Source: a virus
Length of the DNA stretch: 64,000 bases
Direction: 5' to 3' (one strand)
Virus record (IMG/VR): IMGVR_UViG_3300022539_000610
Span: 50,032-114,031 of that record
The notes below the pieces were generated by a model. The model did not search any database. It worked only from the letters and a program-made list of their open reading frames with translations, and was not told where the DNA came from. Made by a program: the position numbers and the translations under genes. This document shows, piece after piece, positions 33,895 through 43,316 of the stretch; the stretch's first letter is position 1, and each line of letters begins with the position of its first letter.

Positions 33895-34464
33895 TTACTT
33901 CAAAAACCCTCGTGCCCTCATCGTCAAGGCCAGCATATACGTATGTTTGCAAGCTCCGGGCAATTTTCTCGGATTGACCGATGGCCTTGTTGTCGTCTTA
34001 CGAGCGTAAGGTCGTGGCTTTCTTCCCGCTGCTAAACTCCCGAATTGCCTTAGATACCACTCCGATCTATAATGAAAGCTGTCACAAGAACACCACACTG
34101 CTGCAGGATGTTTGTCTGCATCAAGTGGTTCCATCCAAACAGTCTTTCCAGGTTGTCCTTTCAATTCTACAGCAACAGGGATGGAATGCTTAGGGTCTCT
34201 TGTGTCTGCAAAGTCTACTCCATAAAAAATTATAGTCAAATCATATGCCGTACCCTCAGCACCGGTAGATCTTGCATCAAACCTCACCCATTTTGTTCCA
34301 GCATATGGTCTAACACTACGAATCTTTACATCTCGATCCTGCTTGAGTTCTCCCTTTAAGACCTTCTCAGTATTATTTAGAATCTGACGCAAAGTAAGCT
34401 TTGCTTTCCTTCTAAGCCTTCCTTCTCCTGCTTCCATTAATATTCTCTCCGCTCTTGATGTCAT
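33895..34464 (-). CDS. leader-tagged SWIM zinc-finger protein
   Basis: MTSRAERILME; VWCSCDSFHYR...NP..PGACKH. Confidence 0.8.
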   Translation of the reverse strand: MTSRAERILMEAGEGRLRRKAKLTLRQILNNTEKVLKGELKQDRDVKIRSVRPYAGTKWVRFDARSTGAEGTAYDLTIIFYGVDFADTRDPKHSIPVAVELKGQPGKTVWMEPLDADKHPAAVWCSCDSFHYRSEWYLRQFGSLAAGRKPRPYARKTTTRPSVNPRKLPGACKHTYMLALTMRARGFLK

Positions 34465-35108: not shown

Positions 35109-35806
35109 TAAATATTCCCTAAAGCATCCCACCAACGACTTGCTCCACCTTCTTCGAGTTTGGTGATAGTCTCATTCCAAAGATCGGTTCCTTCAGACAC
35201 TAACTCAGTGGCATCCATATTGATAGGTAACTCCTCCAAAGTAAACGCTCGACGACTTCTTCCAAGAGCCTGGAGGAACTTTGCAACCACGAGATCAATA
35301 AACAACTTATCCTCTCCAAGGTCAAGAGTGGGGAGAGTAACCTCTTCTACAAGCCCAGGGCTGTCTTCAATCACTGTATAGGAGTGTTCATAATGTTCAA
35401 TGACCTCCATTAGTCCGTTCTCAGTCACGTAGAGAGTGGGCTTATCATAGCGCCATTGAAAGGCACGAGGGATTTCAAGAAGAGTAAACTCGTCTATCCT
35501 CTCCGACACCTCTCGCTGGGCAAACTGATATATACCAACAGCTCCAGCGACTTCAACAGGAGTCACACTAGAAACCCAATCAGGAATTCCATAAGGAAGT
35601 GCTACCGTATATATGTACTTTCTACTACTGACAGTAACGTTTCGAGTCGCAGTAAAAGTTCGGTACTGATCGTAGGTCTTGAGAACTCTCTTAGTCATCT
35701 TCCAGAACTTATCCGTATCAAGCAAGGTGTTAGATAGATCACCAAGAATAAACTCCCCACTCTCTATCATCACCAAATCTATGAGTTCTGTAAGTGTTGT
35801 GCTCAT
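35108..35806 (-). CDS. neck / head-tail adaptor (gp13-like)
   Basis: C-terminal ALGRSRRAF..ELPINMDATELVSEG resembles the gp13 pattern; position after MCP. Confidence 0.7.
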   Translation of the reverse strand: MSTTLTELIDLVMIESGEFILGDLSNTLLDTDKFWKMTKRVLKTYDQYRTFTATRNVTVSSRKYIYTVALPYGIPDWVSSVTPVEVAGAVGIYQFAQREVSERIDEFTLLEIPRAFQWRYDKPTLYVTENGLMEVIEHYEHSYTVIEDSPGLVEEVTLPTLDLGEDKLFIDLVVAKFLQALGRSRRAFTLEELPINMDATELVSEGTDLWNETITKLEEGGASRWWDALGNI

Positions 35807-36246
35807 TTATCAGTAGCACCCTGTAACAACCGCTTGATTAAGGTGTCTCTGTTTCCACTCACTAACAAGTTATGTTGACGACAAAAGGAGCGAAGTTCAG
35901 CTGCTGTTTTTCCATCAAGGTCTTCTTTAGTGAATGATGATACAAACTCCTCAGCAACAGGCTCCTCCCTCAACTCCTCCTCCACAATCTCCTGACCTGG
36001 GATAATAGAAGGTGTAGTCTCCACTTTCTTCGGTTTCTCCGCCTTAGGAGCTACAAACGTCTTCTCCTTTTTACCTTCCTTCACCGTTAGTTTAAAGGCG
36101 ACAAGATGTGGGTTAATAGAATTAATTTGCTCTCTTGTAAGTGGTTTAGACTCCTGCCCCCGTTTAAGAAAAATATCTTCCTGAAGTAGATTGTCTTCCT
36201 CTTTAGGTATCCTTATCCTGCCCTTAGTGTTGTTAACAATTATCAT
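35803..36246 (-). CDS. SAP-domain protein
   Basis: LDGKTAAELRSFCRQHNLLVSGNRDTLIKRL. Confidence 0.8.
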   Translation of the reverse strand: MIIVNNTKGRIRIPKEEDNLLQEDIFLKRGQESKPLTREQINSINPHLVAFKLTVKEGKKEKTFVAPKAEKPKKVETTPSIIPGQEIVEEELREEPVAEEFVSSFTKEDLDGKTAAELRSFCRQHNLLVSGNRDTLIKRLLQGATDK

Positions 36247-38540: not shown

Positions 38541-39955
38541 CATTTATCTTCGCTACAGTTCGCTACTCTGTAACCGTTAAGCCTTTGCTTAACTGCTGCA
38601 TGTCTCCATGCAAGGTGTGACTATCTCATCACCTCTTCTAATGAAGAGGGCCTACCGCTTCGTTAGAAAGTGATCGTCACTTCACTCCCTAATCCGTTTT
38701 CACGGAACCCGCTTGGGCCTACTCCCTTCCGGGATAGTCGATGAACTTTCCACACTTAGCACATCTAAGTGAGTATTAGCTGCTGGTTGCCTTAACAAAT
38801 CCTCAATCCTCGAAGTTACATCAACAAATCGTTCTTTGACAACGAAAATTTGATAATCCAGTAATTTCAATTCCTCAAACTTACTTTTCTTACTTGACTT
38901 CATGTAGTAACTATGAGTTTCTTTCAACCTATTCAAAACATCCAAATGCGCTTGATAATCAACCTTAGCAATAAATAAGTTACGTATCCAGTTTACTACT
39001 TTTTTAAACCGAACCCTTCCACTTCCTGGATTTTCTATCTGTAATAATGTTGGATTCGGAATCCGAATAATGCAAATATTATAGTTTTCCTTAATATACC
39101 TATCTCTACTAACATCGTATTTAAACTGACGTTTATCCACAACGTGATGAAATCCATCCACTTCCACGCCAAGTCGCAAGAAAGGTATATAGAAATCAAG
39201 CAAATAAAAACTACGAGGAGTAAACATAACCTTTTGAAGTTGGACTGAGTTACCCTTTCTGAGATTTTTACAGATCTTCTCACGCCTATTCCTAACCATT
39301 GTCCCTACTCCACGATACTCAAATGGAAAAGATCCAAACTTAGGCTGGGTACGTAAAAGACCTACAAGGGCATTAACAACATAATCAAATATATCTTCAT
39401 ACTTAGTAGAAACCAACAAATTTTCATAACGAAACTGCGCTATTCTATCTACCCTTCTCCCACCAACCTTTATATTATCTATCCTAACATTCCTATAGTC
39501 ACTATCAATTAACTCAAACTTAAACTCATCATCAAATACACCGACGAATGATGACACAAGTAAAGGTAAAAAGTTCAAGTTAATACTACGAATCCCAACA
39601 ATCTCAAACTTAACCCTCCTGACTTTCCTTTTAGTATCATTATAAAGACTAAACTTCCAAGAATCAAGAACATGAGGGTTCCTTACCTTACTTGGGTTCA
39701 AACGAACATTCCCATAACTACTAACCTGAAATCTATCCAAGTACTTTTTATCGCCAGAATAGATATCTGCATCTATATTAACCCAATATTCCATCTTCAA
39801 AACTCCTTTGCTTCATATCCGATAAGGAAAGAGTGAAGCTTTCTTCTCTTACTAACTATCCTTACCTCGTATAGTAAAACTAAAGTCTACTATTGGTCTT
39901 CCAGCAATTCAATAGGTTTAAACTTAGGATTACTCCTAAGCCGCTCTCGATGCGA
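38541..39955 (-). ncRNA. group I intron 1 in MCP (1415 nt, contains an endonuclease ORF)
   Basis: P1 GCUU|UCG-CAU-CGAGAGC with U.G at the junction; P AAUUGCUGGAA; Q AACCAGCAG; R GUUCAUCGACUA; S GAGAUAGUC; terminal G; splicing restores GCT TTC GAT. Confidence 0.92.
38700..39800 (-). CDS. intron-encoded homing endonuclease (NUMOD4-like N-terminus, Vsr/DUF559-like nuclease)
   Basis: EYWVNI...FQVSSYGNVR; YLLDFYIPFLRLGVEVDGFHH...DVSRDRYI...IIRIPN; AGGAG RBS and TTG start. Confidence 0.85.
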   Translation of the reverse strand: MKMEYWVNIDADIYSGDKKYLDRFQVSSYGNVRLNPSKVRNPHVLDSWKFSLYNDTKRKVRRVKFEIVGIRSINLNFLPLLVSSFVGVFDDEFKFELIDSDYRNVRIDNIKVGGRRVDRIAQFRYENLLVSTKYEDIFDYVVNALVGLLRTQPKFGSFPFEYRGVGTMVRNRREKICKNLRKGNSVQLQKVMFTPRSFYLLDFYIPFLRLGVEVDGFHHVVDKRQFKYDVSRDRYIKENYNICIIRIPNPTLLQIENPGSGRVRFKKVVNWIRNLFIAKVDYQAHLDVLNRLKETHSYYMKSSKKSKFEELKLLDYQIFVVKERFVDVTSRIEDLLRQPAANTHLDVLSVESSSTIPEGSRPKRVP

Positions 39956-40196
39956 AAGCTACATCAGGAATCTTACCCAGTTGAGTCAGGGTTCCATCGT
40001 CCTCACAGATAGACCTGTAAATTTCAAAGGCCTCCAACTGCTTGCCTAACTGATAGTAGTCATACGGAGTGATAGATCTCACTTTAGAAAGAGGACTCTT
40101 TTCTAAAAGCTCCATCTGCCCTTTATACCGCTTGAGGTAACCATCAGCATCTCGCTCTACGTTCTTTCCTAGAGCTTCTTCCGTTATGCTAATCAT
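39956..40196 (-). CDS. major capsid protein, exon 1
   Basis: GGAGG then ATG 40196 (MISITEE...IPDVA); directly follows the protease/scaffold gene; spliced product is 479 aa. Confidence 0.88.
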
Positions 40197-40295
40197 AATT
40201 TCCTCCAAAAATAGCATTGTTTACGGTTTACAGCCTGGAGTGCAGACTTCGCTTCTAGCCTAAATGATCCCACTAAAAATAGGATCGGTAATTCC

Positions 40296-41858
40296 TCATC
40301 TTGAAAACTGACCTAACATTCTCTCACCACGACTTGTACTAGAGATAGACTTTTTTGACTCAGAGATCTCTTCACCCTCACCAGGCTCATCCTTGTCTTC
40401 CTTCATCTCATAACTTTTGGAGACAGAAAGTCCGAAGTTCTCTCTCATGATGTTACCAGTTTCAATAGCAGCGTCCTTGGAACCAGTGTTGTCAAGTAAT
40501 TTCCCAGCCTTTTCATCATCGATCCCAAGGGCCTCTGCGACATCTTTTACATCCCGGGTTCGTTTGCTTTTTCTCATATCTTCAACAATTGTCTCCGTGA
40601 GTTCCAAGAGTCTCTCAATTTCCTCTGGGGTACCGAGTTCCAGGAATGACTCAGCCAAATCCATCACCCCTTCGATGTCTTCTGGGGTACCGAGCTCAGA
40701 GATCTTCTCAACAAAGTCCTTTGTCTTTTCAAATGCCTCGTTGATCTCACCAGGGGCACCAAGATCTGTATACTGCTGAAGCACATCCAGAGCCTCATTC
40801 AACTCTGCGATTGAGCCTAGTTCTTTGATGGACTCAGCAAGTTTCTTTGCTCCCTCTAAGGCCTGCTCAACCTCTTCCGCTGATCCTATATCCTTATAAG
40901 ACTCAGTGGCAGCAGTAAGATCCGTAACTTGCTCCTTGGCTGCTTTAAGATCCTTCTGAGTGCCCTCAACTGCCTCTAACACCTTAGAGAGCTCTGAGAC
41001 AGTTCCCAGCTCCTTATACTCCTTCAGGGATTCCTCAGAAGCACTTACCCTATCCTTGGCAACTGCGAGTTTGCCTTTTAAGTCTTCGTTGTCTGCCAGT
41101 ACCTTGTCCAGATCAGCTTGAATGTTGTTCTTCTCTGTCACAAGATTTTCCAGCATTTTAGTTTCTTTCTCTTTAGCTTCCATAATGAAAACCTCCTCAT
41201 TGGTTTCTTGTTCTTGTTCTTGTTTATTATCAGCAGTAGAATCTTCATCTACTACTAGTTCTTCTTTTACTATCTCAGGATCAATTCCATCCTCAACTAA
41301 CTCAGGAATTGCCCCTTTAACTCCTCCAATCTTCACAAAGTCAAACGTTTCCAACCTGAAAGTGTCAGGATCTATAGCTTGTGCTTCGCCTGTCGGAGTA
41401 TTAACCTTACCTTTAAACTTCCCATAAGCACGAGAGGAGGTTGCAAGTCTAACTCCTCCTCGAAAATATGTATTCAACACCTGCCCTGTTGGTGTGTTAA
41501 GAATAAGAGCTTCAATCATCCCTATGTGTGGATCGCCCTCATCCATCCAGAGCTTGACTATTCTATGAGAGGCTTTACCTTCACGAAGGGCCTTGTCATC
41601 CAGCTCCTGATCATGTCCAATGGTGCCAAGCATGAGGCCATTGTCCATATTTTTCTGATTCTCAGTAATCACTTTCGACCAAAGCTTCTTCTTGTAGTAC
41701 CTCCCATTTTCGCTTGCTCCATCAACAATGAAGCCCTGCCCACGAACACGGGCTAAGATATGCTTCCCATCTATAATAGGGTCACCCTTGGCCTCACAAA
41801 GTTGCCAGGCCGTTTCAAACATAAATTGGTCTCTAATAAGTTCTAATCCATTTTCCAT
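40296..41858 (-). CDS. prohead protease (T4 gp21-like) fused to scaffold/core domain
   Basis: NGRYY, GTIGH, ASHRI, ILNTPTGQ, SSRAYG, FRLETFDFV; then acidic coiled coil with repeats. Confidence 0.92.
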   Translation of the reverse strand: MENGLELIRDQFMFETAWQLCEAKGDPIIDGKHILARVRGQGFIVDGASENGRYYKKKLWSKVITENQKNMDNGLMLGTIGHDQELDDKALREGKASHRIVKLWMDEGDPHIGMIEALILNTPTGQVLNTYFRGGVRLATSSRAYGKFKGKVNTPTGEAQAIDPDTFRLETFDFVKIGGVKGAIPELVEDGIDPEIVKEELVVDEDSTADNKQEQEQETNEEVFIMEAKEKETKMLENLVTEKNNIQADLDKVLADNEDLKGKLAVAKDRVSASEESLKEYKELGTVSELSKVLEAVEGTQKDLKAAKEQVTDLTAATESYKDIGSAEEVEQALEGAKKLAESIKELGSIAELNEALDVLQQYTDLGAPGEINEAFEKTKDFVEKISELGTPEDIEGVMDLAESFLELGTPEEIERLLELTETIVEDMRKSKRTRDVKDVAEALGIDDEKAGKLLDNTGSKDAAIETGNIMRENFGLSVSKSYEMKEDKDEPGEGEEISESKKSISSTSRGERMLGQFSR

Positions 41859-41901: not shown

Positions 41902-42150
41902 TCAATAATTAGACCATAAAGGTTTTCCAACATCTCCCCACACCCCTTTTTCTTTCTTCCAAACCTCAATATAAAACTTAGCCTTCGAATACTGTTGTAC
42001 CAAATCCTTTGCAGCCTTTATTGCTTCCTTTGAATCTTTATAGTAAGATGACATATCCTCTAATACTTCATCAGAACTACGATCATATACAAAAACCCCA
42101 TAATCATCTTTAGCTTCAATAAGATCTAATATATCTCTTGCTTTACTCAT
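41902..42150 (-). CDS. leader-tagged small protein
   Basis: MSKARDILDLIE. Confidence 0.75.
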   Translation of the reverse strand: MSKARDILDLIEAKDDYGVFVYDRSSDEVLEDMSSYYKDSKEAIKAAKDLVQQYSKAKFYIEVWKKEKGVWGDVGKPLWSNY

Positions 42151-42860
42151 CTCTTTTCCTCCAATAGTTTTTGTTTCATGTGCTCAAACTTCTCAGTCAG
42201 AAAATAAGTATTCTCTTCATCGCCTTCATGTTGAGCCCAAATGCTTTCAACCTCTTTAGTTTCTATATCTAATACTTCCGCGATCAACTTATGAACCTCT
42301 CCTATCTCTACAAGCCGAAGTAGAAGTTCAAATTCATCCTCATTAAACTTATATCCTATATCTTCATAAAGCTCTGACTCGACAGTTCTCAAAATAGGAA
42401 GGGCATAGTCAGTAAACATTTCAAACTCCACCTGCTCACTCAGAGGCATATAATATCCTTGCTCAATATACATGTGAGTACGCATAGAGGAGATTGCCTT
42501 CAATGCTAAATCTCTACTAAGTATAAGGGCCTCACTCTTTCCCCTCTTCTTCTCTTTAGGTGGGGCAAGGAAGTAACGAGTTGCTAAGAACCTTCCCATT
42601 GAGCGATGCAACCTCTTGCCCTTGATTGAACGGTGAAATTTCTGAATCCCTTTCATGTACCGCCACCGATACTTTCGCCAGTCAGACTTTGCTATCTGGG
42701 CACGTCGAAAGTTCTTCAACCGTGGTACTACATGCTTACGTCTCTTAATGAACTCTTCAAAAAGGGCAGATGAGTAATCATCAGGATCTTGATCAATAAG
42801 ATCTATCCTGCCTACTTCGGACAAGAAATTTAGTTTGTCTTCTGATGATTGGAGTTTCAC
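42147..42860 (-). CDS. hypothetical head-region protein with a basic central segment
   Basis: WRKYRWRYMKGIQKFHRSIKGKRLHR; tiled in the operon. Confidence 0.65.
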   Translation of the reverse strand: MKLQSSEDKLNFLSEVGRIDLIDQDPDDYSSALFEEFIKRRKHVVPRLKNFRRAQIAKSDWRKYRWRYMKGIQKFHRSIKGKRLHRSMGRFLATRYFLAPPKEKKRGKSEALILSRDLALKAISSMRTHMYIEQGYYMPLSEQVEFEMFTDYALPILRTVESELYEDIGYKFNEDEFELLLRLVEIGEVHKLIAEVLDIETKEVESIWAQHEGDEENTYFLTEKFEHMKQKLLEEKR

Positions 42861-43316
42861 CTACTTAACCCTCTCAAACTTCTGAACCACTCTATGTGAA
42901 AAAACACGCATTTCTCCAATTTTACCCTTCATGATCGTGTAGTACCCATCATGCCCTATTGAATGTATAGCTTTACTCATATCATCCACATCAGCCCTCG
43001 TAGGGTCTATACCAGAATCCTTCAACCAATCATACACCTCTTTATGCTTAGGTTTTTTACTCTTACCCTGCCAAAAATTGTAATCGACTACTAGTGGGTT
43101 CTTTAAACTTATCCATACTTTGAAAAGGTCATCACCATAATCTAATGCATACTCAGGGTCCTCTGTAAATGAAATCCCAAGGTATCCATCAGCTTCATCC
43201 CGAGACAAGTGAAATCTTCCTGCCTTCTCAATCTCATCACCCTGACGAGTTCCATGATAAAAAATAAAAGCCTTTGCCTCCACTAAACTCAAAATCTTTG
43301 AAGCTCTACTCACCAT
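42861..43316 (-). CDS. leader-tagged ADP-ribosyltransferase-fold (ART-PolyVal-like) protein
   Basis: MVSRASKILSLVE; FYHGT, GISFTEDPEYALDYG, ISLKNPL, GHDGY, EMRVF. Confidence 0.75.
   Translation of the reverse strand: MVSRASKILSLVEAKAFIFYHGTRQGDEIEKAGRFHLSRDEADGYLGISFTEDPEYALDYGDDLFKVWISLKNPLVVDYNFWQGKSKKPKHKEVYDWLKDSGIDPTRADVDDMSKAIHSIGHDGYYTIMKGKIGEMRVFSHRVVQKFERVK

Follow-up and report, generated by a model that had tools for sequence, protein, structure and literature searches.

The C-terminal helices of the P22 and 80alpha scaffolds bind the capsid protein, and CpmB of SaPI1 carries the C-terminal motif of the 80alpha scaffold and competes for the same site. In the nested genes of herpesvirus UL26/UL26.5 and lambda C/Nu3, an N-terminal protease is fused to a scaffold and the products have a common C-terminus, a tail that binds the capsid and is set free at a maturation site. 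Phage T4 marks internal proteins with a capsid-targeting sequence, a short N-terminal peptide on unrelated proteins (MKTYQEFIAE on IPII and IPIII; also present on IPI and Alt) that ends in an aliphatic-x-Glu site and is removed by the protease gp21; foreign proteins have been loaded into heads with it for 30 years and, to our knowledge, its receptor is still unknown. Here we describe a viral locus that combines elements of all of these. It lies in a 64,000-nucleotide stretch of DNA from an uncultured large phage (hereafter the window), the right half of the 114-kb IMG/VR virus record IMGVR_UViG_3300022539_000610, whose completeness is estimated at 53%. The element in question is the C-terminal tail of a protease–scaffold protein, P0001, which is conserved across a large family and bears a statistical likeness to N-terminal peptides, termed tags below, on about 25 small proteins of the same virus.

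Results

A conserved tail ends the scaffold

The minus strand of the window carries the head, neck and tail genes examined here, and all features described below lie on it. P0001 (520 residues; 40296–41858) was recognized from its open reading frame (ORF) and translation, and matches the head maturation protease family phrog_207 (E = 6.6e-17); it joins a prohead protease of the T4 gp21 type to a helical scaffold in one chain. Translation gives a C-terminal end of ...EEISE|SKKSISST-SRGERMLGQFSR (full ending ...GEGEEISESKKSISSTSRGERMLGQFSR*), in agreement with a preliminary description of the locus, which had the protein ending ...EISE-SKKSISS-tail. The tail itself, S509–R520 (SRGERMLGQFSR; 40299–40334), is an anchor-like helix (residues 510–519 in an AlphaFold2 model) whose motif is family-wide.

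P0001 belongs to a large family, represented at E <= 1e-30 by 574 clusters of 50% identity; 63 homologues were collected. When 28 homologues (mean identity ~30%) are aligned, R510 is invariant (28/28), as is only one other residue outside the protease domain, and R513 is retained in 24/28. The tail is a conservation island (mean per column, 2.27 bits; preceding linker, 1.22 bits), with the consensus (E)-S-R-[AG]-x-R-[LM]-hydrophobic-(E)-x-[FM]-[SG]-[KR]-COOH; a strict tail pattern is found in 33 of the 63 homologues. Among 129 new, distant cluster representatives, 52 (40%) have x-R-x-x-[RKQS]-hydrophobic-hydrophobic within their last 22 residues, compared with 0.7% of random windows, and in 35 of those 52 the motif starts 11–12 residues from the C-terminus; many of the remaining new representatives have a looser ...R-L-M-E-S-F-S-K ending. 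The preliminary description had staked its proposal, that cargo proteins mimic the capsid-binding helix of the scaffold, on this C-terminal motif being conserved in orthologous scaffolds, and the motif indeed spans hundreds of 50%-identity clusters.

To which half of the fusion the tail belongs is indicated by marine T4-like phages, in which gp21 and gp22 are separate genes. Their scaffold ends ..I-I-E|S-N-x-x-F-A-R-M-Q-R-L-A-G-L-K-K while their protease ends differently; the comparable peptide is carried by the scaffold and not by the protease, and the tail is therefore a scaffold feature. Four homologues of Pseudoalteromonas/Aestuariibacter type (P0012, P0014, P0017 and P0018) have one tail-like motif in the interior (RSRAGSLTE.LMKQF) and another at the end ([LM]TVG[GS]LFESCN).

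N-terminal tags resemble the tail

Twenty-four ORFs of the genome begin M-[STN]-[KR]-A-x-x-[ILVM]-[LIVM], usually followed by an aliphatic-x-E site; 23 of these strict tags lie between 22112 and 57711 of the window and one lies upstream of it. Most have [LIVM]-x-E at columns 7–9 or 10–13. As short N-terminal peptides on unrelated proteins with an aliphatic-x-Glu end, the tags can be set beside T4-type targeting sequences. The codons for the tag Ser, Arg, Ala and Leu vary, with both Ser codon families in use; a nucleotide-level signal was rejected on these grounds, and selection therefore acts on the peptide. Tag families encoded on the scaffold strand recur in relatives (12 in locus L015 and 8 in L033). 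The cultured Rhizobium phage RHph_TM30 (207 kb, NC_070966; loci L002 and L085–L092) has at least 8 ORFs starting MS[KR]A..[LIV][LI], the pattern giving 8 hits against 1 in the control, all 8 at ORF starts, and its scaffold (36% identity) ends ...T-S-R-L-M-E-S-F-S-K. This phage carries both tags and tail, so the system is open to bench testing.

A six-frame translation of the window matches [ST]xRxER[ILMV][LIVM] at only two places, the P0001 tail and the leader MTSRAERILME (34432–34464) of the ORF at 33895–34464 (P0002, start MTSRAERILMEAGE), the tag closest to the tail (6-of-8 identity). A matrix built from the tails of 29 homologues in other phages, run over the proteome of this one (~36,000 positions), ranks the P0002 leader 1st and the phage's own tail 2nd, with further tags at ranks 3, 4, 6, 8, 9, 15 and 27. 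At columns that the selection of tails did not impose (Ser2, Ala4, 5, 9, 10 and 11), tags outscore control positions (p = 4e-15), as they do at the columns left free in both selections (p = 0.003).

The converse comparison used tails chosen without regard to motif, taken as the last 14–22 residues of each homologue, with random windows of the same, largely helical, proteins as controls. The pattern that defines the tags occurs in 18 of 186 homologous tails and in 0.39% of control windows, a 25-fold enrichment (p = 1e-19), and the tag matrix separates the 186 tails from the windows (Mann–Whitney p = 1.4e-24). A local profile–profile score computed on such tails without the Met column exceeds column permutations at p ~0.005. 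The preliminary description had also required that the tail score above background against a model of the tags; by all three of these measures it does so at the level of the family. Tags and tails have in common Ser2, a basic residue at 3, Ala4, hydrophobic residues at 7, 8 and 11 and a frequent Glu9. Judged from sequence, the likeness is a statistical one, clear for the family and modest for this phage alone.

Cleavage-type sites surround the tail

T4 gp21 cleaves by the rule L/I-x-E (PMC9026906). In P0001, I-S-E at residues 498–500 (40359–40367) is a predicted site of this type at which a cut would free the last 20 residues; it had been noted in the preliminary description as an I-x-E site preceding the tail, and P0003 and P0004, the two closest homologues, retain it in the form EEISESKK. 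Across 89 tails, hydrophobic-x-E ends exactly one residue before the tail serine in 19 (6.5% background, p = 3e-6) and falls at helix columns 7–9 in 45. These position-specific tests replaced a count of any [LIVM]xE within the 28 residues upstream, which was uninformative (30/32 observed, 78% expected). Together, I-S-E500 in the linker and the position-specific counts suggest a tail that looks built to be removed, or cut through, at maturation.

A probable nested scaffold

Residues 1–177 of P0001 (41328–41858) form a gp21-type serine protease domain (AlphaFold2 predicted local distance difference test score (pLDDT) ~90), whose model superimposes on T4 gp21 (5JBL) with a Foldseek TM(target) of 0.80 (E = 5e-10). 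Pfam PF03420 (Peptidase S77) matches P0001 at E = 0.0017 and 18.3 bits, under the 27-bit cut-off, and is present in most P0001 homologues. H82, S97, H98, S141 and S142, candidates for the catalytic His and Ser, are invariant in the 28 homologues. Residues 178–224 are modelled as disordered and are followed by helices (219–483), which include the helical scaffold domain, residues 227–483 (40410–41180), with six or seven ELGTPEEI-type repeats in its translation and profile matches to helical-repeat proteins. A profile search of solved structures returned only T4 gp21 and helical-repeat proteins, and no scaffold–shell complex. An acidic linker, residues 484–508 (40335–40409), then leads to the tail; its pLDDT is below 50 for residues 484–506 and its conservation, at the value given above, is the lowest in P0001.

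The start of the helical domain coincides with a candidate start codon. Met226 (41181–41183) falls in an alignment column that is Met in 26/28 homologues, and a Shine–Dalgarno sequence, GAGGAGG (41192–41198), lies within the gene 8 nt before this ATG. Given the conserved Met and the ribosome-binding site upstream of it, a protease-less scaffold of 295 residues with the same C-terminal tail is therefore probably made as well; an in-frame internal start giving a scaffold with a common C-terminus is present here at the sequence level.

Proposed mechanism and alternatives

We tentatively favour a reading in which the tail helix would be a protease-releasable anchor common to scaffold and cargo. 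Its most likely receptor would be the capsid protein, bound on the inner face or at the N-terminal region. Both the fusion and the nested scaffold would end in a 12-residue amphipathic helix carried on a disordered acidic linker of ~25 residues, and this helix would anchor the scaffold inside the prohead by docking to its receptor. By analogy with P22, 80alpha, SPP1, T7 and the herpesviruses, that receptor would most likely be the inner face or the N-terminal part of the gp23-like capsid protein encoded next to P0001; capsid-protein N-terminal regions contact scaffolds in P22, T7, SPP1 and 80alpha (PMC9546572). At maturation the protease would free the anchor by a cut in the linker (after I-S-E500 here), and in relatives by a cut directly before the serine (about one fifth) or inside the helix at hydrophobic-x-E (about one half). 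The tags on ~25 small proteins have in common with the helix its opening two thirds, S-[RK]-A-x-x-[IL]-L-(E)-x-hydrophobic, and are likewise closed by a cleavage site of this type; tagged proteins would most likely take the same receptor, load as cargo and then be trimmed. Cargo thus probably enters the growing capsid by imitating the anchor of the scaffold, and we infer the packaging of the tagged proteins, the common receptor and its identity. For the tags to have been derived from the tail, a peptide of the C-terminus would have had to arise anew at N-termini.

A number of observations weigh against this reading, those of the present paragraph in general and others through the alternatives that follow. 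The tail has features that the tags do not, a near-fixed Arg at column 6 and an [SG]-[KR]-COOH end, and the tags alone have an acidic end. Replication in the loci of 18 relatives was weaker, with 10 of 108 top hits at N-termini against a 2.2% background, partly because the tags of these relatives are mostly S-K-A and their tails have Arg. Other lineages carry different leaders on many small ORFs around the head genes (MGK[IF]xxLL[ED], MRLVDxxKxLLE and MxxxxLLxLLE in loci L009, L011, L016 and L022), and SR..RL-like tails persist in lineages with quite different tags; tags differ among lineages while tails stay alike, and tags therefore evolve faster. A comparison of tag type (S-K-A, S-R-A, MGKF or MRLVD) with tail type, by inspection only, revealed no matching change. 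In T4 itself, the C-termini of gp21 (...ALAEAMKKAL), gp22 (...VYAKVASRF), gp67 and gp68 give no convincing match to MKTYQEFIAE.

The receptor might instead be the core, a possibility that we consider rather unlikely but the strongest of the alternatives. The tail and the similar N-terminal helix of the nested scaffold would pack on other scaffold molecules, in helix bundles or in the groove of the ELGTPEEI repeats, and so polymerize the core, with which tags would co-assemble as T4 tags may do with gp22. A scaffold domain that is a helical-repeat array, a kind that often binds peptides, suits this idea, and the N-terminus of the nested scaffold, M-x(2-8)-K-hydrophobic-L-E-x-L-T-x-E-K, matches the core of the tag at columns 6–11 (p = 9e-4), within K-hydrophobic-L-E-x-L-T. 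That N-terminus does not match the S-R-A half of the tag (p = 0.08), while the tail matches tag columns 2–9 at p = 3e-7. The similarity is, however, of a common sort: hydrophobic-hydrophobic-E-x-hydrophobic is frequent in coiled coils, and random scaffold windows already score fairly high. Between the N- and C-terminal helices of the scaffold there is no co-variation (permutation p = 0.88); raw N/C similarity is biased, since the N-terminal helices were anchored by a pattern. In every well-studied system known to us (P22, 80alpha and the herpesviruses), moreover, it is the capsid protein that the scaffold's extreme C-terminus binds.

Docking was modelled in a single AlphaFold2 chain that ran from the C-terminal 40 residues of the scaffold of the relative L015, through a tether, into its capsid protein; the tether was the in-frame intergenic read-through, a 28-residue translation with stops read as Gly (alignment A2, paired and unpaired homologues). 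The tail helix reached a pLDDT of ~51, the capsid protein 80–90, and no confident docking was seen, judged by pLDDT, in this monomer with a shallow alignment and an artificial tether; we take the result as weak negative evidence on the capsid protein as receptor, and it leans towards the core. So does T4, whose targeting sequences, or propeptides, are described as having affinity for the scaffold core and not for the shell, and whose internal proteins co-purify with gp22 (PMC9026906).

That tail and tags have no functional link at all is improbable. Both would then be generic N-capped amphipathic helices (a Ser cap, a basic residue, Ala and hydrophobics at 4, 7, 8 and 11) that agree by convergence or chance, M-S-K/R-A being a favoured start of well-translated genes and AGY-AAA/AGA-GCA after the ATG being A/G-rich and good for initiation. 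The lineages whose tags lack S-R-A fit this explanation, as does the modest score of the phage's own tail, which ranks 117th to 411th of ~36,000 proteome positions (top 0.3–1%) against a matrix of the 24 genome tags and deviates from their consensus at G511 (G for A, column 4), R513 (column 6) and G516 (column 9). The closeness of the tail to the P0002 leader, on which the preliminary description had relied, is real in sequence but is not conserved: P0065, the orthologue of P0002, begins MSRARGILVEAD, an ordinary tag, and a second homologue, P0066, starts without a clear tag. We accordingly rejected a special relation between tail and P0002 leader, and the specific identity, not kept in P0065, is chance on top of the family likeness. 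A first profile–profile permutation, in which the Met column was kept, likewise gave p = 0.53; its design was faulty, since shuffling can take the Met penalty out of the overlap, and the version without Met replaced it. What chance or convergence leaves unaccounted for is why tails carry the exact tag pattern 25 times as often as other windows of these proteins, why the tags stand at the top of the tail-matrix ranking and why columns unused for selection agree.

Least probable is that tail and tag are protease recognition elements, short helices that present a neighbouring hydrophobic-x-Glu bond and resemble one another only because the same enzyme cuts both: the tags do end in [LIV]-x-E, the tails are preceded by or contain such a site and the protease is physically fused to the scaffold, but the scissile bond follows the helix in tags and lies before or inside it in tails, which makes one common docking geometry unlikely. 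Nor does this reading explain why the tail keeps a fixed distance from the free C-terminus. In T4, L/I-x-E is all that gp21 requires, and the tag has its targeting residues (4 and 7) apart from its processing residues (8 and 10) (PMC9026906).

Neighbouring genes

The gp23-like major capsid protein gene, whose product is the candidate receptor, is split by introns and begins 33 codons past the scaffold stop in the same frame. Its first exon spans 39956–40196 (exon limits as given by an earlier annotation), with the ATG at 40196 and GGAGGAA at 40200–40206, and a later exon matches the gp23 family (PF07068, E = 1.4e-16). No promoter- or terminator-like site was found in 40100–40500. An ORF within the intron region (38700–39800) has weak HNH/DUF559 endonuclease matches (phrog_559, E = 6e-5; PF04480, E = 0.0025), which fit a homing endonuclease in the intron proposed in the preliminary description.

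Directly upstream of the scaffold gene is a small ORF with one of the 24 strict tags (41902–42150, start MSKARDILDLIE). A further tagged ORF (42861–43316), with the start M(V)SRASKILSLVE, encodes a 150-residue candidate cargo protein, an ART-PolyVal ADP-ribosyltransferase (PF18760, E = 2e-7, above the Pfam cut-off), which is likely to be an injected effector by analogy with T4 Alt, a packaged ADP-ribosyltransferase (PMC9026906). Between the two, also directly upstream of the scaffold gene, a gene at 42147–42860 encodes 237 residues and may specify another core protein; counterparts by position and similar N-terminus are RHph_TM30 gp280 and genes in several loci (for example, L009 9076–10017). 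P0002 has CxC...CxH near its C-terminus, resembling a SWIM zinc finger, and no Pfam hit. RHph_TM30 gp284 looks like its counterpart by a similar C-terminal end, yet is untagged. A 147-residue protein of the head/neck module (35803–36246) has a C-terminal SAP DNA-binding domain (PF02037, E = 2e-8).

Discussion

Several parts of this locus are of known kinds, namely the capsid-targeting sequence of T4, nested protease–scaffold genes, C-terminal anchors of scaffolds and the mimicry of an anchor by SaPI1 CpmB. What is new is the 12-residue scaffold tail conserved across a family, the statistical resemblance that it bears to N-terminal cargo tags, themselves a large set, and the presence of the whole arrangement in cultured phages; literature searches for a description of tag or tail found none. 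The link in sequence between tag and anchor gives a concrete hypothesis, that tags compete with the scaffold tail for one site. It also suggests how phages may turn almost any small protein into injected cargo, by ~12 added codons. A terminal SR..RL.E.FSK helix behind an acidic linker, in a nested gene, provides a family-wide hallmark of the scaffold that is of use in annotation.

In its widest and more doubtful form, the proposal would make the detachable 12-mer of the tail a universal key, one that fits an inner-face pocket of the HK97-fold shell, with N-terminal copies on dozens of injected cargo proteins per phage, in a very large group of gp21/gp23-type phages, the cultured Rhizobium phages included, and across hundreds of 50%-identity clusters. 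The tags would then be a phage counterpart, and possibly a relative, of the cargo-loading peptides of encapsulins, and the receptor of capsid-targeting sequences would be the scaffold-binding site of the capsid protein.

The T4 system has in common with this one a gp21-fold protease, a gp23-like capsid protein and a tagged ADP-ribosyltransferase, together with the short N-terminal peptide on unrelated proteins that ends aliphatic-x-Glu. The tag sequence differs (M-S-[KR]-A-x-x-I-L here, MKTYQEFIAE in T4), as does the scale, with ~25 tagged genes in half a genome here and a handful in T4. Protease and scaffold are separate genes in T4 and fused here, and the tag here resembles the C-terminal tail of the scaffold, a likeness for which the C-termini of T4 gp22 and gp21 offer no convincing counterpart.

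The fusion aligns the locus with UL26/UL26.5 and lambda C/Nu3, and the herpesvirus architecture drawn on in the preliminary description fits better than was then known, in its conserved internal start, its disordered linker with a protease site and its short terminal helix. With both systems the locus has in common the N-terminal protease fused to scaffold with a common C-terminus, a conserved internal start, in frame and preceded by a ribosome-binding site of its own (recognized here from the sequence), and a predicted cleavage site a few residues before the terminal helix. It differs in its cleavage code, aliphatic-x-Glu in place of Ala|Ser, and in that internal translation, cleavage and capsid binding are here what we infer. 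We know of no case in which UL26/UL26.5 or lambda C/Nu3 load other proteins by means of copies of the tail.

P22 and 80alpha offer the short C-terminal helix as a shell anchor, the role proposed for the tail, and CpmB is a precedent for a second protein that copies a scaffold helix to reach the same site. The copy in CpmB is C-terminal and serves to redirect capsid size, whereas the copies described here are N-terminal, predicted to be cut off and found on many unrelated proteins; neither tail nor tags have sequence similarity to the helices of P22, 80alpha or CpmB.

Encapsulins are like the arrangement proposed here in that the interior of an HK97-fold shell is bound by unrelated cargo through a short peptide at one terminus. 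The targeting peptide of Myxococcus xanthus cargo is PLTVGSLRRGG (PMC7925596), and one scaffold sub-lineage ends [LM]-T-V-G-[GS]-L-F-E-S-C-N, a six-residue LTVGSL match that may be due to chance. The encapsulin peptides are C-terminal, extended and uncleaved, and work without a scaffold or a protease, whereas the tags described here are N-terminal, would be trimmed at maturation and resemble the tail of a scaffold to which the protease is fused.

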